From Escherichia phage pEC-M719-6WT.2: a DNA stretch of 64,000 nt. The stretch lies in the sequence record OQ845958.1. One strand, written 5' to 3'. The notes below the pieces were generated by a model. It was not told the origin of the DNA. It searched no databases and saw only the letters and a program-made list of their open reading frames with translations. This document shows positions 4,825-54,829 of this stretch, in pieces. Each line of letters starts with the position of its first letter. Within the stretch, counting starts at the first letter, position 1. The translations under genes and the position numbers were made by a program.

Positions 4825-4853
4825 AGGGGACCTTCGGGTCCCTTTTTTATTTT
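4825..4853 (+). terminator. intrinsic terminator (GGGACC-UUCG-GGUCCC hairpin + U-tract)
   Basis: ggggaccttcgggtccc followed by ttttttatttt immediately after the gene 32 stop. Confidence 0.7.
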
Positions 4854-4859
4854 CAAAAA

Positions 4860-4895
4860 GTAGTGTACAAGTCCTTTGAGCTAAGGCATAATGAT
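4860..4895 (+). promoter_or_regulatory. sigma70-like early promoter cassette (-35 GTGTACAA, -10 CATAAT)
   Basis: tagtgtacaa, 17 nt spacer, cataat; the same cassette recurs upstream of several small ORFs (6335, 14378, 15925, 22154, 46373). Confidence 0.5.
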
Positions 4896-4930
4896 TCCAT
4901 CAACTACTGATAACAACTGAGGAAATAAAA

Positions 4931-5355: not shown

Positions 5356-5583
5356 ATGGCTAAGGTTAATATTGATATCGTTGATTTTGAATACACTTAC
5401 GAAGTTATTCGTAATCGTTATCCTTCTTTGAGTATGACTTACATTAAAGATACTGTATTCTTTGGTATTCAAATTGAAGTCCAAGGTCCTCTTGAAGACA
5501 TTACCCGCTTTATGCAAAATGAATATTGTGATGGTATGTACCCCGAAGACACTAAATTTTATATGAATTTGATTGAAGCTTAG
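5356..5583 (+). CDS. hypothetical protein
   Basis: 75-aa ORF preceded by GAGGAAAATAAA ribosome-binding site. Confidence 0.45.
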
Positions 5584-5641
5584 TATACAAACCAATGGGA
5601 ACATGCTAATATGTTCCCTCAACCAAAATGAGGAAATTAAA

Positions 5642-6073
5642 ATGGAAACTGGTAAATTTTACGTATTAGACCCCGCTGCCAAAAAACAATTCATCGCTGA
5701 TAGTCCTGATGACAATTCGTGCATGGTCAGGTTGATGGAACAACATGGCAATTCCTTCAAAGTCCTGGATATGTGTTATATTGAAGGTGATTATTTTGTT
5801 GAAAAAGTTGAAATGAAAGATGGCACCATCCTGAATAGTATGGGTGGTGCTGATGAGTACTTTGAACTCGCTGGATGGGAATTCTGTCACTTCCTGGAAG
5901 TTGATGGCGATGCACCTGTTGATACCCAAACCATTCATGTGCAGGTAAATCACAAAAATGCGGCAGAAGTTGATGGCGATGCACCTGTTGATACCCAAAC
6001 CATTCATGTGCAGGTAAATCATAAAAATGCCGCAGAAGTCATTGCACTGATTAAAGCAACTTTTGGGGTCTAA
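5642..6073 (+). CDS. hypothetical protein carrying an internal 23-aa tandem duplication (ORF-track frame starts 5573)
   Basis: Internal ATG with GAGGAAA ribosome-binding site; contains EVDGDAPVDTQTIHVQVNHKNAA twice in tandem. Confidence 0.55.
   Translation: METGKFYVLDPAAKKQFIADSPDDNSCMVRLMEQHGNSFKVLDMCYIEGDYFVEKVEMKDGTILNSMGGADEYFELAGWEFCHFLEVDGDAPVDTQTIHVQVNHKNAAEVDGDAPVDTQTIHVQVNHKNAAEVIALIKATFGV
5897..6034 (+). repeat. 69-bp in-frame tandem duplication (2 copies, about 2 mismatches)
   Basis: gaagttgatggcgatgcacctgttgatacccaaaccattcatgtgcaggtaaatca(c/t)aaaaatgc(g/c)gca repeated head-to-tail. Confidence 0.9.
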
Positions 6074-6329
6074 TATGACTAAAGATGATTTCCTGGATGC
6101 AGTGGAAAAAGCCAGTGAACAATTTGAAGTGATGGGTGTGCGTTTGCATAAAGACAGAAATTATGGTCTGGATGTTCAAACCTACTCATTATGGCTTGTG
6201 GGTGAGCACAGCCTTGCAACCAATCTTGTTATGGGTGTAGATACATATCCTTTATTAGTTAAGTTCAGAAGTATGGAAAAAGCCACTAAGGAAATGATTA
6301 AACTTGGCAAATGGCTTGATAAAATTTAA
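6063..6329 (+). CDS. hypothetical protein
   Basis: 88-aa ORF overlapping the previous stop; coding-like composition. Confidence 0.45.
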   Translation: MGSNMTKDDFLDAVEKASEQFEVMGVRLHKDRNYGLDVQTYSLWLVGEHSLATNLVMGVDTYPLLVKFRSMEKATKEMIKLGKWLDKI

Positions 6330-6334
6330 AAAGT

Positions 6335-6368
6335 AGTGTACAACCAAATGGGGCTATGACATAATGGT
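6335..6368 (+). promoter_or_regulatory. early promoter cassette (GTGTACAA ... CATAAT)
   Basis: aaagtagtgtacaa ... cataatggtcccatactgag; near-identical to the cassettes at 4860 and 15925. Confidence 0.5.
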
Positions 6369-6404
6369 CCCATACTGAGCTACCAAATAAAACTGGAGAA
6401 TAAA

Positions 6405-6644
6405 ATGAAATTACAACGTGAAAGCATCAAAGATTCAGAAGTTAAAGGCAAATGGTACTTTACAATCCAGGGTAACAATCCAGAAGCTCTGGAAAAAGCT
6501 GAAGAAACTTTATGCGCGATGGGTTGGAAAGATGAGTGCGATGGTTGTCCTCTTTATGAAGATGGTAGCTCATCTGGTTTCTGGATTCATCACTCTGACG
6601 TTGACCAATTTAAAGCTGACTGGAAAGTTGCCAAGAAAGCGTGA
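6405..6644 (+). CDS. hypothetical protein
   Basis: 79-aa ORF with GGAGAATAAA ribosome-binding site downstream of early promoter cassette. Confidence 0.5.
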   Translation: MKLQRESIKDSEVKGKWYFTIQGNNPEALEKAEETLCAMGWKDECDGCPLYEDGSSSGFWIHHSDVDQFKADWKVAKKA

Positions 6645-9327: not shown

Positions 9328-11583
9328 ATGCAAGTACAAAAAAGTAGTGGTGTATCTCAAGATTTTGATGGCCAGAAAATTATTAAAGTTCTTTCCTGGT
9401 CATGTGAAGGAACTAATATCGACCCGTATGAATTATACGAAACAATCAAACCACATCTGCGCGATGGCATGACTACTCGCGATATTCAGACGGTTATCAT
9501 CAAAGTATCCGCTGGGCTTATTTCGGTTGAAGAACCAGATTACCAATATGTTGCAGCGAAGGCTACGATGTTTGCTCTACGTAAAGATGTTTATGGACAA
9601 TTTGAGCCACGTTCTTTTATTGACCAGATTTCTTATTGTGTTAATGAAGGTAAATATGACCCAGAGCTGTTGTCAAGCTACTCAGCTGAAGAGATTACTT
9701 ACCTGGAATCTCGTATTAAGCACGAACGCGATTTTGACCTGACTTATGCAGGCGCGATGCAGCTTAAAGAGAAATACCTGGTTAAAGATAAAACCACTGG
9801 GAAAATCTATGAGACTCCACAGTTCGCTATCATGGCCATCGGCATGGCACTGCACCAGGATGAACCAACGGACCGCCTGAAGCACGTTTGCCGTTTTTAT
9901 GATGCAGTATCCACGCAACAGGTTTCGTTGCCCACACCTATCATGGCGGGCGCCAGAACACCTACCCGACAGTTCAGTTCGTGTGTGGTTATCGAAGCTG
10001 CGGACTCCCTGAAGTCAATTAATAAGACTGCTAATTCAATCATCGAATATATCAGCAAGCGTGCAGGTATTGGTATCAACGTTGGCATGATTCGTGCTGA
10101 AGGTTCGAAAATCGGTATGGGTGAAGTCAAGCATACTGGTGTTATTCCGTTCTGGAAACATTTCCAAACGGCTGTTAAATCATGTTCACAAGGTGGAATC
10201 CGTGGCGGCGCTGCTACTGCTTATTATCCTATTTGGCATTTGGAAGTTGAAAATTTACTCGTTCTGAAGAACAACAAGGGCGTTGAAGAAAACCGCATCA
10301 GACATATGGACTATGGTGTCCAGCTGAATAACCTGATGATGGAACGACTGGCTAAGAATGATTACATCACTCTGTTTAGTCCGCACGAAGCAGGTGGTGA
10401 ATTGTATTATTCATATTTTGATAACCCAGATAAATTCCGTGAGTTATATGAAGCCTTGGAAAAAGACCCGACAGTTCGTAAGAAGCGCATCAAAGCAAAA
10501 GATGTATTTGAATTATTCATGACCGAACGTTCCGGGACAGCCAGGGTTTATCCGCAGTTCGTCGATAACGTGAATGACTACACTCCGTTCATCCGTGATA
10601 AGGCTCCAATTCGTCAATCAAACCTTTGCTGCGAAATTGCAATCCCGACCACTGATGTAAACAGCGAAGATGCTGAAATCGGATTGTGTACATTGTCTGC
10701 GTTTGTTCTGGATAGTTTTGACTGGCAGGACCAAGATAAAATTAACGAGCTGGCCGAAGTGCAAGTTCGTGCTCTTGATAACCTGTTGGACTACCAGGGT
10801 TATCCGGTTAAAGAAGCTCTGAAAGCCAAAAAACGCCGCAACCTTGGTGTTGGGGTTACTAACTATGCTGCATGGCTAGCAAGCAATTTCGCTTCCTACG
10901 CTGATGCAAACGATTTAACGCATGAACTGTTCGAGAGATTACAATATGGTCTTATCCGTGCATCAATCAAGCTCGCCAAAGAAAAAGGACCTTGCGAATA
11001 TTATTCAGACACTCGTTGGGCTCGAGGCGAATTACCTATCGACTGGTACAATAAAAAGATTGACCAAATCGCAGCTCCAAACTACGTTTGTGACTGGGCG
11101 CAGCTGCGGGAAGACCTGGTTGAACATGGCATCCGTAATAGCACATTATCAGCACTTATGCCTTGTGAGTCATCTTCCCAAGTTTCTAACAGTACAAACG
11201 GTATCGAACCTCCGCGTGGACCAGTCTCTATTAAAGAGTCAAAAGAGGGTTCCTTTAATCAAGTCGTGCCCAATATTGAACACAATAAAGGATTGTACGA
11301 TTACGCATGGGTGCTAGCTAAGCAAGGTAACAAACCTTATCTGACACAAGTCGCGATTATGTTGAAATGGATTTGTCAGTCAGCATCAGCCAATACATAT
11401 TATGACCCGCAGAATTATCCGAAAGGAAAAGTTCCGATGTCAGTTATGCTTGACGACTTGATGTACTTCTGGTATTTTGGTGGTAAAAACCTTTATTATC
11501 ATAACACTAGAGATGGTTCTGGTACAGACGATTACGAAATCGAAGCTCCTAAAGCAGAAGACTGCTCTGCCTGTAAACTTTGA
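9328..11583 (+). CDS. nrdA: aerobic ribonucleotide reductase large subunit
   Basis: 751 aa; class I RNR motifs and C-terminal CxxC tail; matches T4 NrdA from memory. Confidence 0.97.
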   Translation: MQVQKSSGVSQDFDGQKIIKVLSWSCEGTNIDPYELYETIKPHLRDGMTTRDIQTVIIKVSAGLISVEEPDYQYVAAKATMFALRKDVYGQFEPRSFIDQISYCVNEGKYDPELLSSYSAEEITYLESRIKHERDFDLTYAGAMQLKEKYLVKDKTTGKIYETPQFAIMAIGMALHQDEPTDRLKHVCRFYDAVSTQQVSLPTPIMAGARTPTRQFSSCVVIEAADSLKSINKTANSIIEYISKRAGIGINVGMIRAEGSKIGMGEVKHTGVIPFWKHFQTAVKSCSQGGIRGGAATAYYPIWHLEVENLLVLKNNKGVEENRIRHMDYGVQLNNLMMERLAKNDYITLFSPHEAGGELYYSYFDNPDKFRELYEALEKDPTVRKKRIKAKDVFELFMTERSGTARVYPQFVDNVNDYTPFIRDKAPIRQSNLCCEIAIPTTDVNSEDAEIGLCTLSAFVLDSFDWQDQDKINELAEVQVRALDNLLDYQGYPVKEALKAKKRRNLGVGVTNYAAWLASNFASYADANDLTHELFERLQYGLIRASIKLAKEKGPCEYYSDTRWARGELPIDWYNKKIDQIAAPNYVCDWAQLREDLVEHGIRNSTLSALMPCESSSQVSNSTNGIEPPRGPVSIKESKEGSFNQVVPNIEHNKGLYDYAWVLAKQGNKPYLTQVAIMLKWICQSASANTYYDPQNYPKGKVPMSVMLDDLMYFWYFGGKNLYYHNTRDGSGTDDYEIEAPKAEDCSACKL

Positions 11584-11621: not shown

Positions 11622-12800
11622 ATGAGTACAGTTTTTAATACCACTCCGGTGGATGTTTTAGCCGAGCCAATGTTCTTCGGTTCAGGATTGGGAATTGCCC
11701 GTTATGATATCCAGCGTCATAAAGTTTTTGAAGAATTAACAGAAAAGCAATTATCATTCTTCTGGCGTCCAGAGGAAGTAAACCTGATGATGGACGGAGC
11801 CCAATTTAATAAGCTTCCTGAACATCAACAAAATATTTTTACCAACAACCTGAAATACCAGTCGCTTCTGGATAGTATTCAGGGTCGTGCTCCTGCAGCA
11901 GCATTAGCCGCATTAGTTTCTGACCCGAGTCTTGATACCTGGATTCAGACTTGGACATTCAGCGAGACAATTCACTCTCGTTCTTATACGCACATCATGC
12001 GAAATCTCTATACGGACCCGGCGAAGGTATTCGACGAAATCCTGTTAGATGATGCAATCATGAAGCGAGCAGAATCCATCGGTCATTACTATGATGATGT
12101 TCTGAATAAAACTCGTCAATGGCAAAACCAGATTGCTTTTGTTGAACTGGCCAAAGAAACTCCCGAAGCGGACGAACGTTTGGAACGAGCTATCAAACAA
12201 GAATCTATCGCCAAACGAGCATTGATGAAGTCTCTTTATCTCTGCCTGCATGTCATTAATGCCCTGGAAGCCATTCGTTTTTATGTATCTTTTGCATGTA
12301 CTTTCAACTTCCATAAGAACATGGAAATCATGGAAGGCAATGCGAAGATAATGAAGTTCATCGCCCGCGATGAACAGCTCCACCTTAAGGGGACCCAATA
12401 TATTCTTCGTCAGCTGCAGACTGGTGTTGACGGTGACGAATGGGTTAAAATCGCTCGCGAATGTGAAGCAGAAGCCGCAGACATTTTCATGGAAGTTAAT
12501 CGCCAGGAAAAAGAATGGGCCGTGCATCTGTTTAAAGACGGTGGACTCCCTGGGCTGAGCGTCGAGATTCTTAACCGGTTCATCGATTACCTGACGGTTT
12601 CTCGTATGAAGCAATGTGGTCTCCCGTGTGAAATCGTGTTAGAATCTACTAAGCACCCGATTCCATGGATTCGCGAATATCTTAACTCTGATAATGTGCA
12701 ATCAGCACCACAAGAAGTTGAGTTGTCTGCTTACCTGGTAGCCCAAATTGACAATGACGTCGATGAGAACGTTCTTGCTGGTTTCCGTAAATATCTATAA
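11622..12800 (+). CDS. nrdB: aerobic ribonucleotide reductase small subunit, uninterrupted
   Basis: 392 aa contiguous ORF with di-iron/tyrosyl radical signature; follows nrdA after a 38-nt gap. Confidence 0.96.
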   Translation: MSTVFNTTPVDVLAEPMFFGSGLGIARYDIQRHKVFEELTEKQLSFFWRPEEVNLMMDGAQFNKLPEHQQNIFTNNLKYQSLLDSIQGRAPAAALAALVSDPSLDTWIQTWTFSETIHSRSYTHIMRNLYTDPAKVFDEILLDDAIMKRAESIGHYYDDVLNKTRQWQNQIAFVELAKETPEADERLERAIKQESIAKRALMKSLYLCLHVINALEAIRFYVSFACTFNFHKNMEIMEGNAKIMKFIARDEQLHLKGTQYILRQLQTGVDGDEWVKIARECEAEAADIFMEVNRQEKEWAVHLFKDGGLPGLSVEILNRFIDYLTVSRMKQCGLPCEIVLESTKHPIPWIREYLNSDNVQSAPQEVELSAYLVAQIDNDVDENVLAGFRKYL

Positions 12801-13237: not shown

Positions 13238-14370
13238 TTGAATTATATGATAACTTAATGAAGCTTTGCACCGAATCCGATAAAGGTAAGTTTTTCTATA
13301 CGGATTTTGTTTCTCCATTTGAAACTAAGTTCCGCATCTTTAGCTATAACTATGCTTCCTATAGTGATTGGCTCCTTGATGATGCGCTGGAGTGCCGTGG
13401 CATTATGTTTGAAATGGATGACAATGGTCCAGTTCGCATTGCTGCTCGCCCTATGGAAAAATTCTTTAATCTGGGTGAGAATCCAATGACCATGGACCTT
13501 AACCTTGATAAGGTTGTCCTGGTTACTGCAAAAGCTGATGGTAGCTTGGTTTCTACTTATATGGACCAGACTAATATCGCCTTTAAATCAAAGGGGTCAA
13601 TCAAAAGCTCCCAAGCAGCTGAATCCTTGCAGGTGTTTAAACAAGAACATCGCAGTGCATTCAGGGCTCGTGTGACTGAAATCACTGAAGCTGGTTATAC
13701 ATGCAACATGGAATATGTTGCACCGACCAACCGCATTGTTTTGCCTTACCAGGAACGTGACCTTATTTTACTGAACGTTCGTCATAATGAAACTGGTGAA
13801 TATATTCCTTATCAGGAGCTGTTCAAAGATGCAGCGCTTCGTCCTTTCCTGGTTGAAGCATATGACCCGGCAACCATTGAGAATGTTCGCGGTATGAAAG
13901 AGATTGAAGGCTTCGTCTATGAGATGGCTAACGGTCAGAAGTTCAAGATGAAAACAGAATGGTATTGTGCTCTGCATCATACTAAAGACTCCATTAATAA
14001 TAATGAGCGACTGTTTGAAGTTGTTGTTGCTGGCGGCGCGGATGATGTTATTGCCATGTTTACTGGCGATACTTATGCTCGTGAAAAAGTTACTGCCTTT
14101 ACTGCAACACATCTGGATTATCTGTCCAACACTCTTGGACTGTTGCTTGATGCACAAAAACAGTTAGCAGGAAAAGACCGTCGCGAGTTTGCGATTAAAG
14201 GTCAAGAGTTATGTAAACCATATCCGGGATTGTTCTCCGTATTAATGAACACCTATCAACGCCCACAGGAAACTGAACAAACGATTGCTCAAATCAATAA
14301 AGTTTTCCTTAAAAATCATAAACTTTACATTCCGTTAGACTACCAGGCGGAAGTAATCCTTCCTGAATAA
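13234..14370 (+). CDS. rnlA: RNA ligase 1
   Basis: 378 aa; FSYNYASYSDWLLDDALECRGIMFE, EDGSLVSTY, FVAPTNRIV match T4 Rnl1 (gene 63) from memory. Confidence 0.9.
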   Translation: MIELYDNLMKLCTESDKGKFFYTDFVSPFETKFRIFSYNYASYSDWLLDDALECRGIMFEMDDNGPVRIAARPMEKFFNLGENPMTMDLNLDKVVLVTAKADGSLVSTYMDQTNIAFKSKGSIKSSQAAESLQVFKQEHRSAFRARVTEITEAGYTCNMEYVAPTNRIVLPYQERDLILLNVRHNETGEYIPYQELFKDAALRPFLVEAYDPATIENVRGMKEIEGFVYEMANGQKFKMKTEWYCALHHTKDSINNNERLFEVVVAGGADDVIAMFTGDTYAREKVTAFTATHLDYLSNTLGLLLDAQKQLAGKDRREFAIKGQELCKPYPGLFSVLMNTYQRPQETEQTIAQINKVFLKNHKLYIPLDYQAEVILPE

Positions 14371-14373
14371 TAA

Positions 14374-14412
14374 AAAAGGGGTGTACAAGCCCCTTCTTTC
14401 TATACATAATGG
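14374..14412 (+). promoter_or_regulatory. terminator hairpin fused to early promoter (-35 in hairpin loop)
   Basis: aaggggTGTACAAgcccctt then ctttctatacataat; stem GGGG/CCCC encloses the -35-like TGTACAA, CATAAT about 17 nt later. Confidence 0.5.
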
Positions 14413-14441
14413 TTCCATCAACTACTGATGAGGACCAAAAC

Positions 14442-15823: not shown

Positions 15824-15924
15824 TAGAGAACTGTAGCCTTGGTTGGGATATTGTTAGATTTGGTGCATTCTGTTTTTGTTTTGGAATTGCGGCCACTTTA
15901 TGTGTTCAAGGTCTTTTTGGAAAG

Positions 15925-15958
15925 TAGTGTACAAACTCATGGGAGCAGAGTATAATGC
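15925..15958 (+). promoter_or_regulatory. early promoter cassette (GTGTACAA ... TATAAT flanked by short inverted repeat)
   Basis: aaagtagtgtacaa ... GGAGCAgagTATAATgcTCCT; 6-bp inverted repeat brackets the -10. Confidence 0.5.
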
Positions 15959-15984
15959 TCCTACGGATTATAAAATTTGAGGAA

Positions 15985-17889: not shown

Positions 17890-18097
17890 CAAACACCATG
17901 AAGTTGAAGAAGAAGCTTATAAAGAGCTTCAGAAACTGGTAGGTCAGAATATGTCTCCTGCTCTTATCAATAACCTGGCTGCACTGCGTAATGACATCAA
18001 CGAACGGTACAAGGGCGAATATTATGTTGAATTCGTTCCGCTGACTGAAGTCATTGACCGATTTATCGTTAATGTCAAGGTGCATACCGTCCATTAA
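17882..18097 (+). CDS. hypothetical protein (internal start of ORF-track 17813-18097)
   Basis: ATG overlapping the previous stop; 71 aa. Confidence 0.4.
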   Translation: MYNKHHEVEEEAYKELQKLVGQNMSPALINNLAALRNDINERYKGEYYVEFVPLTEVIDRFIVNVKVHTVH

Positions 18098-18122
18098 CGC
18101 TTTAAAAATTTTATGGTATAAT
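18098..18122 (+). promoter_or_regulatory. MotA-type middle promoter
   Basis: cGCTTTAA, 12 nt, TATAAT, then conserved leader GGGGTCTAGGTCC; same architecture as promoters at 36613 and 42618. Confidence 0.5.
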
Positions 18123-18168
18123 GGGGTCTAGGTCCTTTGGATACCCCGATAACTAAGCGAGAAAAGAA

Positions 18169-18447
18169 ATGTTTCCCACATATTCTGAAATTGTTAAAGT
18201 ACTTTTTAGTCAGATTGTATCTGATTATCTATACGAAAGCGTCGACGTGTCGACTGAACTAAAAGTGCACGGTCGTTTGTCTGCTATTCTGGAAATCATG
18301 TTCCCAGATGCAGTTGATGCAATCACTGTTCAACTCACGCCTGGTGCAGCATTTGCAATTGTTCCATTTAAAATTGATAACCACATTTTGGCTATTTCAT
18401 GCAAAATGGACTTCCAGAAACAAACGGTAGTTGTCGAAGCAATTTAA
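18169..18447 (+). CDS. hypothetical protein
   Basis: 92-aa ORF with GAGAAAAGAA ribosome-binding site. Confidence 0.45.
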   Translation: MFPTYSEIVKVLFSQIVSDYLYESVDVSTELKVHGRLSAILEIMFPDAVDAITVQLTPGAAFAIVPFKIDNHILAISCKMDFQKQTVVVEAI

Positions 18448-19627: not shown

Positions 19628-20209
19628 ATGAAACCAACTACTGTTCTGCAAATCGCATACCTTGTATCTCAAGAATCCAAATGTTGCTCCTGGAAAGTGG
19701 GAGCTGTTATTGAAAAGAATGGACGCATTATTTCTACAGGGTATAATGGTTCCCCTGCAGGTGGGGTCAACTGTTGCGAGCATGCGGAAGAGCAAGGTTG
19801 GTTACTGAATAAACCTAAACCTGTTCTCGTCCCCGGTCACAAGCCAGAATGTGTGAGATTCAGTAAGGTTGACCGTTTTGTATTGGCGAAAGCCCATCGC
19901 GAAGCCCATTCCGCATGGTCAAAGAACAACGAAATCCATGCTGAGCTTAATGCGATTCTGTTTGCAGCCAGAATGGGTTCGTCAATTGAAGGCGCTACTA
20001 TGTATGTGACGCTTTCTCCTTGCCCTGATTGTGCAAAGGCAATTTCCCAATCAGGAATCAAGAAATTGGTTTACTGTGAAACGTATGACAAGAATATTCC
20101 TGGCTGGGATGATATCCTGAAGAATGCGGGAATTGAGGTGTTCAATGTGCCTAAGCGTAGTCTAGACAAATTGAACTGGGAAAACATTAACGAATTTTGT
20201 GGTGAATAA
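19628..20209 (+). CDS. cd: dCMP deaminase
   Basis: 193 aa; cytidine/dCMP deaminase zinc motifs (CEHAE ... SPCPDCAK); length equals T4 Cd. Confidence 0.92.
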   Translation: MKPTTVLQIAYLVSQESKCCSWKVGAVIEKNGRIISTGYNGSPAGGVNCCEHAEEQGWLLNKPKPVLVPGHKPECVRFSKVDRFVLAKAHREAHSAWSKNNEIHAELNAILFAARMGSSIEGATMYVTLSPCPDCAKAISQSGIKKLVYCETYDKNIPGWDDILKNAGIEVFNVPKRSLDKLNWENINEFCGE

Positions 20210-22112: not shown

Positions 22113-22143
22113 CAGGGACTCTTCGGAGTCCCTTTTTTATTTT
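22113..22143 (+). terminator. intrinsic terminator (GGGACUC-UUCG-GAGUCCC + U-tract)
   Basis: agggactcttcggagtcccttttttatttt. Confidence 0.7.
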
Positions 22144-22153
22144 CCATAAAGGG

Positions 22154-22183
22154 GTTTACAACAGGGTTGGTCCAGTGCATAAT
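22154..22183 (+). promoter_or_regulatory. early promoter cassette (GTTTACAA ... CATAAT)
   Basis: ggggtttacaa, 17 nt, cataatgattccatactgagtta; leader nearly identical to the cassette at 46373-46420. Confidence 0.5.
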
Positions 22184-22224
22184 GATTCCATACTGAGTTA
22201 CACAATAAAACACTGGAGAATAAA

Positions 22225-22593
22225 ATGAAAATCAATCTTAACTCATACATCAAAGGTAAAGACCACGACGGTTACAAAGCCATTGAAACTAAAGAGATGC
22301 AATGGCACTTGTATAAAGAACAGTTTGAATTTGTTGGTTGCATGACTCCTGAAGGTCCTTCTGATGACTTCTCCTGGAAAATTATGGTAACAAACTTTTT
22401 TACTGGTGATACATACGAACTGAAAACTTTGATTTTGGGTAAGATTCGTTGTAAGACCTATGAAGATGAAGAAACTGGTTATTCTGAAGATGTTACATGG
22501 TATCAAAATGGTCGCACCACTGCAGACCTTCTGATTGAAAAAATGAAAGCTAAGGGTGAATTAAATTTAGATAATTGGATTAAAGTCGCATAA
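22225..22593 (+). CDS. hypothetical protein
   Basis: 122-aa ORF with GGAGAATAAA ribosome-binding site. Confidence 0.5.
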   Translation: MKINLNSYIKGKDHDGYKAIETKEMQWHLYKEQFEFVGCMTPEGPSDDFSWKIMVTNFFTGDTYELKTLILGKIRCKTYEDEETGYSEDVTWYQNGRTTADLLIEKMKAKGELNLDNWIKVA

Positions 22594-36223: not shown

Positions 36224-36613
36224 ATGAATATAAACAAAATGTATAGCGATGTATCTCCCGACTTATCTACAAGTTGGGATAAAGACGTTGCTAAAGTAAC
36301 TGGCGCAAGGTCTGTTAAGAACAGTCTTCTAGGAATAATCACCACAAGAAAAGGGTCACGGCCTTTTATGCCTGAATTTGGATGTGATATAAGTAATCAG
36401 CTTTTTGAGAATATCACACCGTTAATTACAGATACCATTAAACGCAACATCGTCTCCGCGGTGCGGAACTTCGAACCAAGAATAAGCAATCTACAGGTTG
36501 CAGTTGTCCCTATGTATGATGATAACTCCATTATCGTAACGGTTCAGTTCAGCATTGTTGATGACCCTGATACCCTCGAACAAATCAGGATTCAGCTAAG
36601 TCAAAACGGTTAA
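36224..36613 (+). CDS. 25: baseplate wedge protein gp25
   Basis: 129 aa; GIITTRKGSRPFxPEFGCD and SAVRNxEPRI match T4 gp25 from memory. Confidence 0.92.
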   Translation: MNINKMYSDVSPDLSTSWDKDVAKVTGARSVKNSLLGIITTRKGSRPFMPEFGCDISNQLFENITPLITDTIKRNIVSAVRNFEPRISNLQVAVVPMYDDNSIIVTVQFSIVDDPDTLEQIRIQLSQNG

Positions 36614-36638
36614 TGCTTTAATTTTATGGCTGTATAAT
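36613..36638 (+). promoter_or_regulatory. MotA-type middle promoter for uvsY
   Basis: aTGCTTTAA, 12 nt, TATAAT, then conserved leader GGTTCTAGACCC. Confidence 0.55.
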
Positions 36639-36666
36639 GGTTCTAGACCCTTACATTGGATACATT

Positions 36667-37101
36667 ATGAAAACAGAGATTGAATATAAGTTGGAAGTCT
36701 TTCAGGACGAGTTAGATGCAGATTTAAAAATTGATGGTACACAACTTCAATATGAAACACAAAACAACGTTTTGTTGCATAGCAAATGGTTGAGATTGTA
36801 TACCAACTGCAAGAAAGAAATAATGCGTCTTGAGATTCAGAAGAAAACTGCACTGAAAAAACGACTAGACCATTATACGGGAAGAGGTGACCCAGGGGAA
36901 GAGGTATGCATGGATGTATACGAGAAGTCAGAATTGAAAACAGTCATGGCAGCAGATTCAAACATACTGAAGATTGATACTTCAATTCAGTATTGGGCAC
37001 TACTCCAGGACTTCTGTAGCGCTGCATTAGATGGTGTTAAGTCGCGAAGTTTCGCACTTAAACATATGTTAGAAATAAGACAATTCGAGGCAGGCAAATA
37101 A
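36667..37101 (+). CDS. uvsY: recombination mediator UvsY (internal start of ORF-track 36637-37101)
   Basis: 144 aa; LQYExxNNVxLxSKWL, RLDxYxGRGD, FAxKHxxxxRxFEAGK match T4 UvsY from memory. Confidence 0.9.
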   Translation: MKTEIEYKLEVFQDELDADLKIDGTQLQYETQNNVLLHSKWLRLYTNCKKEIMRLEIQKKTALKKRLDHYTGRGDPGEEVCMDVYEKSELKTVMAADSNILKIDTSIQYWALLQDFCSAALDGVKSRSFALKHMLEIRQFEAGK

Positions 37102-40846: not shown

Positions 40847-41980
40847 ATGGCTTATACCGTAGCTATTGCTCCTTTGGCGGCTACGGCCGTTATTGGAGCA
40901 ACAACCAATTTCACTGCAACCGGCTCTGGTGCTGCAGCTGAAGGTGTTGAATCATTTGTATGGACCGTTGATGGCGTTCCTCAATCTTCTGTGACTGCAG
41001 CAATGGATTATGTCGCTGTTGGCCCAGCAGGCAGTAAGACTATTAAAGTTGTTGCAACTACCACTCCGGCAGACGGTGAACCGGAAACTGCTGAGGCTGA
41101 GACAACTTTAACTATCCAGAATAAAACAATGCCTGCTATTACATTGACTTTAGACCCTGCCTCTGTTACTAAAGAAGTGGGGCAATCTCAAGTTGTTACT
41201 GCTAACGTGACAGGCGCTCCTTCTGGTGCAACAATCGCTTACGTTTGGAAACGTAACACTAGCGTAATCGCAGGTCAAACTGGTAAAACTATTACCGTCA
41301 CCGAATCAGCAGAAGCAAATTATACATTGAACTGTGAAGTTACTGTTTCTGCACCCGATTATAATAATGGCACCGCATCTAAAGGAGCTGCGGTAACTTT
41401 TGTTAAGAAAACTATGTCGGGTGTTTCTGTTACTTTAGCACCGACCTCTATTAATGTTCCTGAAGGAACTCCGGCTTCTTTTAAAGCTACTGTAGCCGGT
41501 GCGCCTGCTGGTGCTACTTTTGCCTATTCTTGGAAGAAAGATGGTTCACCAGTCGCTGGTACCACGGATACTTTGGCAATCGATACAAGCGCCGAAGGTT
41601 CCCAGTTAATTGAAGTTTCTGTTGTTGTATCTGCTACAGATTATAACCCTGTAACCGTTACCAAAACTGGTAATGTAACAGTCACGGCTAAAGTCGCACC
41701 AGTTCCAGATGGCGAATTACCATATATTCACCCATTGCCAGTACGTAATTCAGCTTATATCTGGTGTGGTTGGTGGGTTATGGATGAAATTCAGAAAATG
41801 ACTCTTGCTGGGCAAGACTGGAAAACTGATGACCCAGATAGCCCGTATTATTTGCACCGATACACACTTCAAAAAATGATTACCGACTATCCAGAGGTTG
41901 ATGTACAAGAATCTCGTAATGGTCGAGTTATTCATCGCACCGCTTTAGAAACTGGTATTATATACGATTACGTTTATTAA
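40847..41980 (+). CDS. hoc: highly immunogenic outer capsid protein Hoc (tandem Ig-like domains)
   Basis: 377 aa (T4 Hoc 376); three repeated about 90-aa Thr/Val-rich Ig-like modules plus C-terminal Trp-rich capsid-binding domain. Confidence 0.8.
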   Translation: MAYTVAIAPLAATAVIGATTNFTATGSGAAAEGVESFVWTVDGVPQSSVTAAMDYVAVGPAGSKTIKVVATTTPADGEPETAEAETTLTIQNKTMPAITLTLDPASVTKEVGQSQVVTANVTGAPSGATIAYVWKRNTSVIAGQTGKTITVTESAEANYTLNCEVTVSAPDYNNGTASKGAAVTFVKKTMSGVSVTLAPTSINVPEGTPASFKATVAGAPAGATFAYSWKKDGSPVAGTTDTLAIDTSAEGSQLIEVSVVVSATDYNPVTVTKTGNVTVTAKVAPVPDGELPYIHPLPVRNSAYIWCGWWVMDEIQKMTLAGQDWKTDDPDSPYYLHRYTLQKMITDYPEVDVQESRNGRVIHRTALETGIIYDYVY

Positions 41981-42010
41981 TTAAAAAGGGACCTTCGGGT
42001 CCCTTTATTT
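41981..42010 (+). terminator. intrinsic terminator (GGGACC-UUCG-GGUCCC + U-tract)
   Basis: aaaagggaccttcgggtccctttatttttatgg. Confidence 0.7.
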
Positions 42011-42147
42011 TTATGGTACTGAGCAAACGTTGCCTGGCCCCTTCTCCGGTAAGTCCTTGTGGTCATACCATAACAATTGTTCATCTGGCATAAAAATCAT
42101 GTTTACAAGTTAAAAATTCCATGTTAAGATAGCTTCACTAACTCAAC

Positions 42148-42611: not shown

Positions 42612-42617
42612 CCCTTT

Positions 42618-42654
42618 TTGCTTCAAATAAAAATGCGGTATAATGGTTCTAGAC
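42618..42654 (+). promoter_or_regulatory. MotA-type middle promoter upstream of rnlB
   Basis: tTGCTTCAA, 13 nt, TATAAT, then conserved leader GGTTCTAGACCC. Confidence 0.5.
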
Positions 42655-42741
42655 CCTTTGTGACTATTAATTCCTTTCAAAGAAAGAAAGTATAGCGGGT
42701 CTAATTTATAATGATATTTATAACATCAAAAGTGAGAGATT

Positions 42742-43749: not shown

Positions 43750-43780
43750 AAAAGGGCCACAAGGCCCTTATTCTTTTTCC
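43750..43780. terminator. bidirectional intrinsic terminator (GGGCC-ACAA-GGCCC)
   Basis: Palindromic stem flanked by A-run and T-run, between convergent rnlB (+) and the gene 24 paralog (-). Confidence 0.6.
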
Positions 43781-45051
43781 AGCGGTGGAAGTTTAACACC
43801 AAGATAAGAACTCAATTGACTTTGGTTAGCCATCTTATCCATATCAGCTCCATCAATAAGGCGAGCTTCTTTATCATCTTTAGCAACGGTGTAAGGGTTT
43901 GCAGTCAAAGCATAACGAGCTAACAGTGCAACCGTAGGCTGTAAGCTTTCAGGGTCAACAATAACCTTGAATTCCCCAACCGAGGTATCACCCTCATCAT
44001 CAACTTCGCTAAGCCCTTCCGTATAAGGCGCATAATACAAAGATGCGACCGTCTGACCCTCGCCCATATCCGCATTTACACCAACAATAACATAATCGCA
44101 TGGACTATTCATATCTGCATAAAGAGGCAAACCGTTCTTCAGAACACCATAGGCCAATTCATCCTGGTCTTCCTTTTTCTCAACCCAACCAGAAGCGGCT
44201 AAAATAGCTGCACAACGGGAAGAAGCAACCGCATATGTACCAGCAAATGAAGTCTGACGTTGAACTGCAGAATTCATTTCACACATATAATAATACAGGG
44301 TTCGCGCGCGGTCCTGTGCGTTATCATATTTCGGGTCAGTGAGATTCAACACGCCTTTTTCAGAAACACCTTGTACCTTGAAGCGGGAACTAACAGTAAT
44401 AAGGGATTGCAATACATCCTTATTAATTTCCTCCGCCATTTGAATACCGAGAATATTATCGATGAAGTCTGTTGCATCGAAACCGTTTGCTTCCAGGTCC
44501 TGGGCAAGCTCGACAGTTAAAGAAGTTTTCAACTTTCTGGATTTAACTTCAGTCTGCCATTTATCGATACGGAACCCAGCTTCAGCAATTTCAGGATGCC
44601 CCTTTTCAAATTTATCAGTGAAAGCAGCATCTGACATCATTCTTATATGTCCAGCAGCAATGGCTTCAGAAATAACTTCACCTAAATCAGTTTCGAGTGT
44701 CCCGGCGAATGGTGATGCTTCCAGAACTTTGAATACAACGCTTTCAAACTGAAACATATCGCCGACTGCATAAGCTTCGTCTTTGTTTGTAAATTCTGGA
44801 ATATTCTTACGCTCGAACATACCAATCTGACCTGCAAATGTTGCTCCACCGAGATAAGTCATTTTATCATCTGGGTTCAGAACACGAACACCATACAGGG
44901 CTGCAACAGGCTGGGTAGTTTTCTGTTCGGCCACGAGCGCTTTAAAAATTCGTTTATTCGTAGCCTGAGTATAAGAAAGCAAATTAGGACGGGCGACCTG
45001 GTTGGCCGCCGTTAATGTTGATTCGTGAATTAGTGCATTAATCTTTTGCAT
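43768..45051 (-). CDS. gp24-like capsid vertex protein paralog (second copy)
   Basis: 427 aa; roughly half identical by eye to the adjacent gp24 and to T4 gp24 (KSRKLKTxLTVELAQDLEANGF, EINKDVLQSLITVS). Confidence 0.85.
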   Translation of the reverse strand: MQKINALIHESTLTAANQVARPNLLSYTQATNKRIFKALVAEQKTTQPVAALYGVRVLNPDDKMTYLGGATFAGQIGMFERKNIPEFTNKDEAYAVGDMFQFESVVFKVLEASPFAGTLETDLGEVISEAIAAGHIRMMSDAAFTDKFEKGHPEIAEAGFRIDKWQTEVKSRKLKTSLTVELAQDLEANGFDATDFIDNILGIQMAEEINKDVLQSLITVSSRFKVQGVSEKGVLNLTDPKYDNAQDRARTLYYYMCEMNSAVQRQTSFAGTYAVASSRCAAILAASGWVEKKEDQDELAYGVLKNGLPLYADMNSPCDYVIVGVNADMGEGQTVASLYYAPYTEGLSEVDDEGDTSVGEFKVIVDPESLQPTVALLARYALTANPYTVAKDDKEARLIDGADMDKMANQSQLSSYLGVKLPPLEKE

Positions 45052-46332
45052 TTACGCCTCATAAATGATTGGCGGAAGTTTAACACCGAGCAGATAAGAC
45101 ATATTGCTCTGACCGGCCATTAAATCCATATTGGTTGCATCGATAATACGAGCTTCTTTATCGTCTTTAGCAACGGTGTACGGGTTAGCTGAAAGTGCGT
45201 AACGAACCATCAGAGAGATAGATGGCTGCAAGCTGTCTGGGTCCACAATGACCTTAAACGCACCAACGTGCTCTTCATCATCCAAGTCCAGGCCTTCGGT
45301 ATAAGGAGCATAGAAAATTGAGCCTACGACTTCGTTTCCGCCGTAATTTTCTTTAACACCAACAGTTACATAATCCAATGGACTGTTAACATCACAGAAT
45401 ACAGGGAGGCCATTAATCAAATAACCGTACGCTGTTTCGGGGAGCCACTGTTCGTCTTCTGGCCTGTGTTTCAACCAACCAGAACCGGCCAACATAGCAG
45501 CAACACGGCTAGAGGCAACAACAAAGGTACCGGAATAAGATGTAGTTTTCTGAATTTCGGAGTTCATTTCGCAAACCAGTTCGTACAGTTTACGTGCACC
45601 TTCTGGGGCTGCATCGTATGTTAAATCGATGGTGCCATTGTCAGAAACGCCAGTTACTTTATAACGCTTGGAAACGGTAATAAGAGACTGAAGAACATCT
45701 TTGTTAATTTCATCTGCCATAATAGTGGCAAGCAGGTCTTCTAAGAAAGCAGGAGCATTAAAACCATTTGCTTCCATATCCTGGGCAAGTTCAACAGTTA
45801 ATGCAGTTTTCAATTTACGTGTTTTAACCGGAGCATTCCATTTGTTAACCTGGAATACAGCATTGCTAATTTCAACATCACCGGCTTCGAATTTTTCAGT
45901 GTGTGCGGCATCAGGAACAAGGCGAATAGTCGATGCAATAAGACCTTCTTGCAGAACATCAGATAACACTGTTTCTGTGGTCGATGCAAATGGATTATCA
46001 ACCAGAGCTTTGTAAACGATATTTTGGTATTTTACATATTCGCCTTTAGCCACAGGCTGAGTGGCTGTAGTTAATTCTGGAATAGTTGTGCGGTCTTTAG
46101 AACCGACTTCGCCTCCATAAGTAGCGCCCGTCTGGAAACTGAATTCATTATCAGGAGTAAGATATTTAACACCATACAGTGCAGCAACAGGTTGGTTAGT
46201 ACGTTGTTCAGCGATGATATCGCGGTAAATCAATTTAGTCGTAGCGCGGGTCAAAGCAACAAGATTCGGGCGGCCCAAGGAGTTGCTGGTAGTAATAGTT
46301 GACTCGCGCAGTAATTTGTTAATCTTTGCCAT
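45052..46332 (-). CDS. 24: capsid vertex protein gp24
   Basis: 426 aa; N-terminus MAKINxLLRESTxTxSNSxGRPNLVALTRATTKLIY and much of the body match T4 gp24 from memory. Confidence 0.92.
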   Translation of the reverse strand: MAKINKLLRESTITTSNSLGRPNLVALTRATTKLIYRDIIAEQRTNQPVAALYGVKYLTPDNEFSFQTGATYGGEVGSKDRTTIPELTTATQPVAKGEYVKYQNIVYKALVDNPFASTTETVLSDVLQEGLIASTIRLVPDAAHTEKFEAGDVEISNAVFQVNKWNAPVKTRKLKTALTVELAQDMEANGFNAPAFLEDLLATIMADEINKDVLQSLITVSKRYKVTGVSDNGTIDLTYDAAPEGARKLYELVCEMNSEIQKTTSYSGTFVVASSRVAAMLAGSGWLKHRPEDEQWLPETAYGYLINGLPVFCDVNSPLDYVTVGVKENYGGNEVVGSIFYAPYTEGLDLDDEEHVGAFKVIVDPDSLQPSISLMVRYALSANPYTVAKDDKEARIIDATNMDLMAGQSNMSYLLGVKLPPIIYEA

Positions 46333-46358
46333 TTGCGCTTTCCTTTTGTGATATACTT

Positions 46359-46366
46359 TATTTATA
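46359..46366 (-). promoter_or_regulatory. late promoter (TATAAATA on minus strand) for gene 24
   Basis: Forward TATTTATA about 25 nt upstream of the gp24 ATG; back-to-back with a plus-strand early promoter. Confidence 0.55.
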
Positions 46367-46372
46367 AAAGTT

Positions 46373-46420
46373 GTTTACAACCAGATTAAGATAAGACATA
46401 ATGATTCCATACTGAGTTAA
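46373..46420 (+). promoter_or_regulatory. early promoter cassette (GTTTACAA in short hairpin ... CATAAT)
   Basis: gttGTTTACAAc ... cataatgattccatactgagtta; leader nearly identical to the cassette at 22154. Confidence 0.5.
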
Positions 46421-46443
46421 CAAACAAAACCTGGAGTTTAAAA

Positions 46444-52697: not shown

Positions 52698-52705
52698 TAT
52701 TTATA
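52698..52705 (-). promoter_or_regulatory. late promoter (TATAAATA on minus strand) for gene 19
   Basis: Forward TATTTATA about 50 nt upstream of the gp19 ATG. Confidence 0.5.
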
Positions 52706-52762
52706 CTAGGTAATATGATTCATCATCTCAAGATAACGGCTTCCCAGAATCAACTACAGGAG

Positions 52763-52813
52763 CCCGTAGAACCGATTATGCTTTTATTTATACCACTGTA
52801 TAATGGTTCTACG
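52763..52813. promoter_or_regulatory. promoter element inside a 10-bp inverted repeat, readable as a plus-strand middle promoter or a minus-strand late promoter
   Basis: CCGTAGAACC gatt aTGCTTTTA tttataccactg TATAAT GGTTCTACGG; reverse complement contains TATAAATA. Confidence 0.45.
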
Positions 52814-52849
52814 GTTTCTAACTGATTAATTCATTCTAAGCGATGATAA

Positions 52850-54829
52850 TTATTGTGGCCCAATCAGCTCATCAAAATCAGCACCAGTGCTAGTGGCTAC
52901 GAAGTTAAGAGTGATGTAGTTGATGCTGCGCGCAGGTTTAAAATAAATGCTAGCAACAAACTCATTTCGGTCTATGACCGACGGGGTGTTGTTAGTAGTA
53001 TCACAAACTACACGACCTTCATAAATGCCACCAAGTGCACGAATACCATCCAAGTATTGAGAAGTTTCCATACGGAATGATGCACGAGTGAAGTTATCGT
53101 TAAGCTCAAACAGTTTATATTTGGATGCATCACCGATATTTTTCTTCAGCATATTCGTAAGACGACGAACGTTAATATGGTCCATCGGAGATGGAACTTT
53201 AGTTGCAGTCTTATCACCATACAGAACAAAACCATCACCACCTGCGAAACCAACAACCGGGTTGATAGCTTCTTGATACATGCGGTCACGTTGGGTCTGA
53301 CGTGGTTCAACAGCCAATTTCAGAACGTTCAGAATCTGACCGCGGTTATAACCAGCCGGAGACATCCAAGGCTGAGAAACATCATCAGTACGAGCACACA
53401 GACCAGCCATATCAGCTGCCAGAGGAACCCAACGGTTAACGTCATTATATTTATCATACTGATATTTATAGTTGCCATCAATCGCTGCATAAGTCGTGCT
53501 GATATTCATGTTATCAGTATCAAATGCGCCAGCACCTGTACGCCAGTCAATCAGGTTATCCACTGCACGGGTCAGAGGAACGTTAACCAACAGACCTTTC
53601 GGCGGGGAAATAAATGCCAGACAATCCTGACGTTCGTCAGCAATAGAAACCACGTGTTTCTGAACAGTGGAAGCGGTTGCATCACCTTCACCAGCTACTG
53701 CACCAGCGATAAGCAGGTTAATATGCAGTGCTTCACGGTCAGCAAACAGGTCCCAACCTTGCATCAAATCACCAGCGGTAATCTTATCGTTTGCAGAAAT
53801 ACCACCAGACAGATTGATGATACCACTGAAGCCTGCAGGCCAGTTGCGAGATGTTGCATAGATGTAGTTGGAAGTACCTTTTGCAAAGTAGTCATCCAGA
53901 TAAATGTTATTACCGTAAACATCTTTTTCGCCCTGCTTGGTAGACAAAACAACGTTTTCGACGATTGCACCATCGCGGCGAACGATAATTGCATATTGGT
54001 TTTCAGACTGAGGACCATAGTTAAACACGGCACGAGCCACAGAAGCACGCGTTCCGCCGCCCGGGAAAATATTCAGATTTGCAGCTGCGCCTTTTTCAAA
54101 TTCAGCTTTAGATACGATTTCAACTTCCAGAGTAGAACCGATTTCGCCTGGATAAAGAGCAACAACACCTGGCATTGCATATTTTGCTAATGATGCCTGG
54201 AATTCCAGAGAAGTAATTGCTTCTTCACTGTTTTCTGCTTCAGTCAACAGAATTCCAGAATCGGTAACAATTTTCCCAACAGTGATGGTACCAGATACAC
54301 CAGAAGAAGTGGTTGTAACTTCCGCAGTCCATGCACTACCTAAATTAGGATACTGATTAATAGTTTTGGCAAATGCAATAATCTTATCGGTAGGAATAAA
54401 GATTGCCTGAATTTTACCATCAACGTCGACCTTGGTCACACGGCCAGCCGGTTCAACAACAGTCTGGTTGTGTTTAACCTGAATAACATCACCGACAGCA
54501 TAGTTTGTACCAGCAGTTACGATGGTAGTTTCAATATTGCCAGCAATAGGGGATGCGTTTTTAGCTTCGTCACGGTTAACAACACGTACAGTACGGAGGT
54601 CATTACCATATTGCAGGAAGTTCATCCCACTCATAAAGTAATCTGCTGTTTCATTATTCGGACCACCAAACAAATCAACAAGTTCAACTTCGTTTGTAAT
54701 TTGAGTTACCTGGAAAGCTGGGCCCCACTGGAATTTACCAACCAGCGCCGCACGACCCGTCGCGTTACGAACAACAGTGCTTTGTACCGTTGTTTCTTTG
54801 AGCTCAATGCCCGGGGATAATAAAGCCAT
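52850..54829 (-). CDS. 18: tail sheath protein gp18
   Basis: 659 aa, same length as T4 gp18; late promoter TATAAATA upstream (forward TATTTATA near 54868). Confidence 0.93.
   Translation of the reverse strand: MALLSPGIELKETTVQSTVVRNATGRAALVGKFQWGPAFQVTQITNEVELVDLFGGPNNETADYFMSGMNFLQYGNDLRTVRVVNRDEAKNASPIAGNIETTIVTAGTNYAVGDVIQVKHNQTVVEPAGRVTKVDVDGKIQAIFIPTDKIIAFAKTINQYPNLGSAWTAEVTTTSSGVSGTITVGKIVTDSGILLTEAENSEEAITSLEFQASLAKYAMPGVVALYPGEIGSTLEVEIVSKAEFEKGAAANLNIFPGGGTRASVARAVFNYGPQSENQYAIIVRRDGAIVENVVLSTKQGEKDVYGNNIYLDDYFAKGTSNYIYATSRNWPAGFSGIINLSGGISANDKITAGDLMQGWDLFADREALHINLLIAGAVAGEGDATASTVQKHVVSIADERQDCLAFISPPKGLLVNVPLTRAVDNLIDWRTGAGAFDTDNMNISTTYAAIDGNYKYQYDKYNDVNRWVPLAADMAGLCARTDDVSQPWMSPAGYNRGQILNVLKLAVEPRQTQRDRMYQEAINPVVGFAGGDGFVLYGDKTATKVPSPMDHINVRRLTNMLKKNIGDASKYKLFELNDNFTRASFRMETSQYLDGIRALGGIYEGRVVCDTTNNTPSVIDRNEFVASIYFKPARSINYITLNFVATSTGADFDELIGPQ

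Follow-up and report, generated by a model that had tools for sequence, protein, structure and literature searches.

Four promoters in the DNA analysed here, a stretch of 64,000 nucleotides from Escherichia phage pEC-M719-6WT.2 (OQ845958.1; hereafter the window, with positions counted from its first letter), resemble each other not only in the -10 element but also beyond it, up to and past the point where transcription is expected to begin. A preliminary description of the window had taken this block for a conserved leader motif downstream of MotA-type promoters, and had proposed an RNA hairpin, a processing site, a protein-binding site or a mobile promoter cassette. What the block is, how widely it is kept in T4-like phages and what it may do are the questions addressed here.

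Comparison of a 4-kb stretch around the first of the four sites placed the window among Gaprivervirus T4-like phages of Escherichia, Shigella and Yersinia, the nearest match being vB_EcoM_RZ (96.7%). The genes motA and asiA lie outside the 64-kb window; the annotation of SP18, a 94.5%-identical relative, includes both. Early and middle transcription follow the + strand of the window, and the gene names at the four sites were taken from SP18 and from ORF maps. T4-type phage genomes have a G+C content of about 35% (PMC4122927 Table 1).

The four sites and their predicted starts

The first site is located upstream of cd.3 (ATG at 18169). Its MotA box taaCGCTTta (18095..18104, + strand) overlaps the stop codon of the upstream ORF, with CGCTT 14 nt before the -10 element TATAAT (18117-18122), which is followed by GGGGTCTAGGTCC. 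The core (18117..18139) contains the discriminator GGGGTCT (18123-29), a predicted start at A 18130 and the initial transcribed block AGGTCCTTTG (18130-39), the full sequence being GGTATAATGGGGTCTAGGTCCTTTGG. The fourth G is an expansion of the G run, i.e. a 1-nt insertion: relatives carry GGGTCT at this locus (L309 and L313 read TATAATGGGTCTAGGTCC), and because of the additional G the site is missed by ungapped searches. The CGCTT variant of the MotA box is also found in the mapped T4 promoter PnrdC.7.

The second site, upstream of uvsY (ATG at 36667), is the positional orthologue of T4 PuvsY/oriF. The MotA box taaTGCTTta (36611..36620, + strand) overlaps the gp25 stop codon, and TATAAT (36633-36638) is followed by GGTTCTAGACCC, giving a core at 36633..36654 with the discriminator GGTTCT (36639-44), a predicted start at A 36645 and AGACCCTTAC at 36645-54 (full sequence TGTATAATGGTTCTAGACCCTTAC). 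The third site lies upstream of rnlB (ATG at 42742), with the MotA box tttTGCTTca at 42616..42625 and TATAAT at 42639-42644 (+ strand), again followed by GGTTCTAGACCC; its core (42639..42660; GGTTCT 42645-50, predicted start A 42651, AGACCCTTTG 42651-60, full sequence GGTATAATGGTTCTAGACCCTTTG) is the best-conserved intergenic block between Gaprivervirus and JS98-like loci. A degenerate second copy, TATAGCGGGTCTA, is present in the rnlB leader (42691..42703, + strand) and at this locus only.

The fourth site, in the gene 18/19 intergenic region, has the MotA box ttaTGCTTtt at 52776..52785 and TATAAT at 52799-52804 (+ strand), followed by GGTTCTACGGTT (core 52799..52814; GGTTCT 52805-10, predicted start A 52811, full sequence TGTATAATGGTTCTACGGTTTC). 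It is oriented antisense, into the 3' end of the late gene 18 (stop codon 52850-52), and its sequence diverges from the others after TCTA. The entire promoter is flanked by a perfect 10-bp inverted repeat, CCGTAGAACC (52764..52773) and GGTTCTACGG (52805-14), which is completed by the bases CGG after TCTA; this explains why the site departs from the family at that point. On the late strand, the repeat corresponds to a 10-bp stem whose loop contains a TATAAATA late-promoter box (52785-92, - strand). Gene 19 is preceded by two such TATAAATA boxes (52703-52795, - strand), one of them within the spacer between the MotA box and the -10 element, so that the two strands carry overlapping elements here, a late box on one and a middle-type promoter on the other.

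At all four sites (T/C)GCTT precedes a perfect TATAAT by 14-15 nt, and the -10 spacing after TGCTT reproduces the geometry of T4 PuvsY; the assignment to MotA-type promoters is borne out by this anatomy. The position given earlier for the rnlB site, 42649, needs correction, as the -10 element is actually at 42639, 10 nt away.

The near-identity reported for the four sites is real in the sense that the shared motif is far above chance expectation, but it is exact only at the uvsY and rnlB sites. These are the only carriers of the exact 18-mer, for which 2 matches were found in the window against 0.27 expected even with three mismatches allowed. The 13-mer TATAATGGNTCTA, with at most one mismatch, gave 4 matches against 0.40 expected, and none of 100 shuffles reached 4. 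Three of these matches are the uvsY, rnlB and gene 18/19 sites, the last of which shares just the first 13 nt with the others, up to TATAATGGTTCTA; the fourth (60287, - strand) was rejected as a promoter, being intragenic and devoid of a MotA box. Another candidate, TATAATGGTTCC at 19742, was also rejected, since it lies inside cd and is conserved in T4 as coding sequence. The string ATAATG(A/G)TTC is not restricted to middle promoters either: five early-type promoters of the window read CATAATG(A/G)T(T/C)CCAT.

The position of the block relative to the start site can be deduced by homology with T4. The starts of T4 PuvsY, PnrdC.7 and P34i have been mapped to 115371, 53325 and 153011, respectively (Hinton 2010, PMC2988021 Table 1), and in each case the start is the A located 7 nt past the -10 element, i.e. 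the A of TCTA. By analogy, transcription in this phage is predicted to begin at 18130, 36645, 42651 and 52811. If the A of TCTA is the start, then GGTTCT is the untranscribed discriminator (-6 to -1), and the leader begins only with AGACCC. The term leader motif thus holds for the transcribed AGACCC part, some 6-10 conserved nucleotides, but, by T4 homology, not for GGTTCT. The tetranucleotide CTAG, which occurs only 35 times in the 64-kb window, coincides exactly with the predicted start of the cd.3, uvsY and rnlB promoters (TCTAG).

Middle promoters of this kind are a minority. On the + strand of the window, the block is carried by only 4 of the 12 MotA-type candidates with a perfect TATAAT. 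The MotA/AsiA-dependent middle promoters of T4 have the same MotA box near -30, the same -10 element at 12 +/- 1 bp and the same A start 7 nt on, but differ in that the -6 to +9 block is present in 3 of 58 only; the signature G(G/A)NTC(T/C)A(+1) is limited to these three mapped promoters, most discriminators being A+T-rich. Most functional middle promoters lack the block, and MotA activation as such therefore does not require it. The published T4 middle-promoter consensus ends at the -10 element with an optional TGn (PMC2988021).

Conservation, gain and loss in T4-like phages

The lineage distribution of the block was surveyed in IMG/VR loci, and T4 and SP18 were scanned as whole genomes. A scan of IMG/VR with the 14-mer GTATAATGGTTCTA was uninformative, the matches listed being unrelated contigs. 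Judged from its sequence, the block sets apart a rare subclass among the MotA-type promoters of Tevenvirinae, and the genome-wide search suggested in the preliminary description has shown it to be conserved across T4-like phages.

In T4, where the copies read TATAATG(A/G)NTCTAAG(T/C)CC, the members are PuvsY (oriF), PnrdC.7, loosely P34i (oriG), and two further MotA-type promoter-like sites on the + strand of AF158101. One of these (-10 at 11885) lies in the srd/modA intergenic region and points into modA, the other (-10 at 75988) lies between gene 3 and gene 2 and points into gene 2; both are absent from the table of mapped middle promoters (PMC2988021 Table 1). SP18 contains seven copies, associated with cd.3, uvsY, rnlB, anti-18, anti-modA, anti-gene 2 and an internal promoter of gene 34, and its equivalents of the two T4 antisense sites are at 11414 and 73490 on the + strand. 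Both sites keep their position and orientation across several genera: the anti-modA promoter was found at all 14 srd loci recovered, and the anti-gene-2 promoter in at least seven lineages of the IMG/VR loci. The rnlB copy was found in Gaprivervirus, in JS98-like loci and in one other lineage, and the anti-18 copy, i.e. the fourth site of the window, likewise in three lineages (SP18/Gaprivervirus, JS98-like loci and one other), being absent in the T4 group.

At the uvsY promoter of the IMG/VR loci, G-TATAAT-GG(T/G)(T/C)(T/C)T-A-G(G/T)(T/C)CCTT is retained in more than 20 distinct sequences whose spacer and leader are wholly different. Even where the identity of UvsY and gp3 to the queries has dropped to about 50-60%, the block is still present. 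Its retention at the uvsY, anti-gene-2 and anti-modA loci, with randomised spacer and leader, reflects purifying selection and not recent copying. At rnlB, too, the block persists next to a diverged spacer and leader. The conservation past the -10 element that had been noticed in the window is therefore real and under selection.

When 64 distinct sequences were anchored on the -10 element, the conserved stretch extended from -15 to +9, with background values beyond +10. The information content was 0.6-1.4 bits at most positions between -3 and +9, comparable to that of the MotA box, values which are descriptive only because the 64 sequences are phylogenetically related; positions -3 to +9 were free of constraint from the search pattern, which partly fixed -12 to -5. 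Many members of the family have T, G and G at -15, -14 and -13, in the manner of an extended -10 element. The first nine or so transcribed nucleotides are AGACCCTT here, AGGTCCTT in most lineages and AAGTCCTTCC in T4, the sequence of +2 to +6 drifting between lineages; the initial transcribed consensus of T4 is AAGTCC, as against AGACCC in this phage.

Although both the class and the individual promoters of T4 are already known, no description of the -6 to +9 subclass block or of its conserved antisense members was found in the literature examined.

Beside the loci at which the block has long been kept (uvsY, anti-gene 2 and anti-modA), there are others at which it comes and goes. The anti-18, rnlB and nrdC.7 copies are lineage-specific, and at cd.3, rnlB, anti-18 and T4 nrdC.7 block, MotA box and leader are gained or lost jointly. 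At cd.3, close relatives differ by a clean indel of about 72 bp: Gaprivervirus and one JS98-like genome have the MotA box, -10 element, block, leader and Shine-Dalgarno sequence before the ATG, and the other JS98-like genomes, whose Cd.3 is 96-97% identical to that of the window, have only TGA-ggtaatt-ATG. Moreover, paralogues within a genome share variants (TCTAAG(T/C)CC in 4 of 4 in T4; GGTTCT in 5 of 6 in Gaprivervirus, with AGACC in three), and the copies in one genome are partly homogenised. The cd.3 indel and the lineage-specific copies accordingly support the proposal of a mobile promoter cassette; that orthologous loci have kept the block over long periods shows that it is under selection as well.

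Mobile regulatory cassettes of T4-like phages have been described as PeSLs and PmSLs, the latter built on a TGCTT Mot box and a -10 element (Arbiol 2010; Comeau 2014, PMC4122927). Like these, the promoters described here are short cassettes that recur in the genome and occur at indels between close relatives. PeSLs and PmSLs end in a Shine-Dalgarno sequence and a start codon, which is true for the cd.3, uvsY and rnlB sites but not for the anti-18, anti-gene-2 and anti-modA sites. Several block copies are, in contrast to PeSLs and PmSLs, antisense and without a gene, both plastic regions and the conserved core contain copies, and the defining conserved part lies downstream of the -10 element. 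In addition, the terminator stem-loop directly upstream of a PeSL or PmSL is missing at the first three sites, only the fourth being bracketed by an inverted repeat. The block is not a PeSL, because at the first three sites coding sequence runs up to or into the MotA box with no stem-loop upstream.

A further short sequence, GATAATAGATTA, recurs in several lineages 3' of two antisense promoters, anti-gene-2 and anti-18 (L177, L180, L186 and L208-L212; about +31 to +50), and is present in the window at 52843-52852. On the opposite strand it borders directly on the late gene's stop codon, and the duplicated unit may therefore measure about 85 bp.

Possible function of the block

On balance, and with modest confidence, we favour the view that MotA/AsiA-dependent middle promoters include a distinct, conserved subclass whose core is this block, and that the block acts on the DNA level within the RNA polymerase open complex. 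The module would extend from about -15 to +9, and would consist of (T)G(G) directly before a perfect TATAAT, a discriminator of the form G-G-N-T-C-T, an A fixed as the start 7 nt past the -10 element and a G+C- and pyrimidine-rich stretch in the first nine or so transcribed nucleotides. The G at -6/-5 would contact region 1.2 of sigma-70 and stabilise the open complex, the T(-1)A(+1) step would fix the start site, and +2 to +9 would determine where the bubble ends downstream and how fast the polymerase escapes from the promoter. A core of this kind could give a strong, precisely starting promoter once MotA replaces the -35 contact, and the module may spread in a cassette-like fashion. The start sites of this phage are inferred, as are the contact of the block with sigma region 1.2 and core polymerase, the effect on promoter strength and the role of +2 to +9 in bubble positioning and promoter escape, a stretch that is G+C-rich and then pyrimidine-rich and that matches no defined polymerase element.

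A G at -5/-6 is known to contact sigma-70 region 1.2 and to lengthen the life of the open complex, as in the long-lived complexes of the lambda PR promoter. Lambda PR reads GATAATGGTTGCA(+1) and has ATAATGGTT in common with the block, after which both have a discriminator of 6 nt and start at an A; it differs in using a -35 element, in not depending on MotA and in lacking the conserved +2 to +9 block. A functional parallel to lambda PR, i.e. a long-lived open complex, would fit this likeness. The early promoters of the lineage, which work without MotA, read G(A/G)T(T/C)C(C/T)A(+1), with G at -6 in 27 of 29 and A at +1 in 24 of 29, and the discriminator shape that they share with the block points to the polymerase, not MotA, as the reader of that half. 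It should be noted, however, that T4 and this phage use the same host polymerase, and therefore a constraint imposed by polymerase alone cannot explain a lineage-specific consensus at +2 to +6; variants that differ by lineage and are common to paralogues would also fit gene conversion or a lineage-specific trans-acting factor. Downstream promoter elements are not mentioned in a study of DksA and the discriminator (PMC6024815) or in the structure of the sigma-appropriation complex (PMC6755090).

If this assignment to the core promoter is correct, the -6 to +9 module would be a third element of sigma-appropriation promoters, which are now defined by the MotA box and the -10 element. It would provide a concrete, mutable sequence with which to study what separates origins from ordinary middle promoters, the source of 'anti-late' RNA and the movement of cassettes, and it would give the annotation of T4-like genomes a sharper pattern for strong middle promoters and their exact start sites.

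The main rival, which we retain although we consider it unlikely, is that the block marks dedicated MotA promoters for functional non-coding RNAs, namely the R-loop primers of oriF and oriG and antisense RNAs. As part of the same reading, and equally unlikely, these antisense RNAs would be of the 'anti-late' or anti-early kind and would run into genes 2, 18, 34 and modA at their 3' ends. The main product of such promoters would be a primer/R-loop RNA or an antisense 'anti-late' RNA rather than an mRNA, and the strong core, the G+C clamp and a 5' end rich in C/U and free of structure would promote lasting RNA-DNA hybrids or polymerase roadblocks. The module would then be what makes a middle promoter competent as an origin or for R-loops, or what makes it a stable head-on polymerase roadblock, and it would be the sequence signature that reviews say T4 origins lack.

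Several data are consistent with this possibility. The uvsY site is orthologous by position to T4 PuvsY, which is oriF, and T4 P34i, which is oriG, reads GTATAATGGTCCCAGAG and is conserved in SP18; both origin promoters are within the 3/58 subclass. The T4 R-loop origins and the uvsY site also have in common a middle promoter, and the origins continue with A+T-rich DNA. The leaders are unstructured, as this reading would have it, and three of the seven SP18 copies and two of the five T4 copies are antisense without a downstream ORF (anti-18, anti-gene 2 and anti-modA), each sitting directly 3' of the gene it runs into. These antisense copies may relate to the classical 'anti-late RNA' of T4. 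They may also relate to the 22 antisense start sites detected in T4 by dRNA-seq (bioRxiv 10.1101/2024.04.04.588121). A terminator scan downstream of the anti-18 site showed no convincing end for the antisense RNA.

Against this, P34i is a loose member of the family, inside coding sequence and without the initial transcribed block, even though it resembles the anti-18 site in being antisense to a late gene; the cd.3, rnlB, uvsY and nrdC.7 copies are directly upstream of genes with ribosome-binding sites; and the mapped T4 origins oriA and oriE are kilobases away from the antisense copies. The A+T content at +11 to +60 is 0.64-0.82 in the T4 members against 0.68 +/- 0.06 for all middle promoters, and these overlapping ranges mean that downstream A+T content does not discriminate. 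Furthermore, T4 origins have no common local motif, oriF and oriG show little homology and are alike only in having a middle promoter and an unwinding element, and R-loop formation is independent of specific sequences (PMC3016281).

A quite unlikely alternative is that the block acts in the RNA, the first ten or so nucleotides (A-G-G/A-Y-C-C-U-U) being a 5' tag read by a protein, an RNase or a complementary RNA. Such a tag would control stability, processing or Rho loading. That conservation reaches +9, that the 5' ends are single-stranded in predicted folds and that the block occurs on coding and non-coding transcripts alike would all agree with a tag. However, conservation is strongest before the start (-6 to -1), the anti-18 site has lost the transcribed part and kept the untranscribed one, +2 to +6 drifts between lineages, and there is neither a known candidate reader nor a matching Rfam family.

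The more specific proposal of an RNA hairpin did not survive folding. For 12 transcripts of the family, the predicted stability of the first 40 nt does not exceed that of shuffled sequences (MFE z from -0.16 to +1.08), no common fold emerged among single-sequence folds of +1 to +30, +45 or +60, and a search with Rfam at gathering thresholds returned nothing in the window. In the rnlB leader alone, the 5' AGACCC of the transcript can pair with a GGGTCT 46 nt downstream, located in the degenerate copy TATAGCGGGTCTA (60-nt fold, -12.8 kcal/mol). A promoter signature for NAD capping was also considered. Such promoters favour a purine at -1, and the signature does not fit the block, which has T at that position. 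The block may be a processing site or a non-palindromic protein site.

Neutral shared ancestry, i.e. recent copying or gene conversion of a cassette whose bases past the -10 element have no function, is improbable and already disfavoured. The cd.3 indel, the lineage-specific copies, the homogenisation within genomes and the precedent of PeSL/PmSL cassettes (PMC4122927) speak for it, but it does not account for a block kept in phages about 50-60% identical in UvsY and gp3, next to a randomised spacer and leader.

Least credible, and in our opinion very improbable, is an operator across the start at which a phage or host DNA-binding protein would switch these promoters jointly off or on: although the uvsY and rnlB sites are near-palindromic and genome-specific variants are common to paralogues, as if co-evolving with a trans-acting factor, T4 and most of the remaining copies lack palindromy, there is no known candidate regulator, and the early promoters have the same discriminator shape. 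The near-palindrome itself is present in the uvsY and rnlB sites, where the TCTAGA dyad of GGTTCTAGACCC is self-complementary at 10 of 12 positions, but the other members score only 2-8 of 12; the TCTAGA palindrome is thus lineage-specific. With dyad symmetry confined to these two sites and T4 copies reading TCTAAGTCC, a palindromic protein-binding site was rejected. An inverted MotA box within the block, an idea derived from T4 PnrdC.7 (GGCTTAGA on the opposite strand), was likewise rejected, being absent from the Gaprivervirus copies.

Early-type promoters and duplications in the window

A second promoter family of the window, of the early type, is found on the + strand at 4840-4900, 6313-6410, 14358-14418, 15916-15961, 22131-22230 and 46350-46430. 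It consists of AAAAAGTAGTGTACA, a gap of about 17 nt and CATAATG(A/G)TTCCATACTGAG, and in some copies the leader is conserved up to CTGGAGAATAAAATGAAA. Three early-type copies are directly 3' of a GGGACCTTCGGGTCCC terminator hairpin (4818-53, 29324-59 and 41979-42014), and together with it they look like terminator/early-promoter cassettes of the PeSL type. In many early promoters the -10 element is surrounded by an inverted repeat, e.g. GGGGTCagagTATAATGACCCC (SP18 L136, L137, L002 and L138, and T4 7191; the SP18 examples include record positions 166751, 137312 and 167158), which would place the -10 element in the loop of a potential hairpin.

Two duplications within coding sequences were also observed. 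Gene 24 (head vertex) is represented by tandem paralogues on the - strand, at 43768-45051 and 45052-46332, whose products of 427 and 426 aa are 55% identical, and at the same locus SP18 has a single gp24 annotated. An in-frame 69-bp tandem duplication, 97% identical, is located at 5897-6034 (+ strand), as a result of which EVDGDAPVDTQTIHVQVNHKNAA is present twice close to the C-terminus of a 166-aa ORF (5573-6073).
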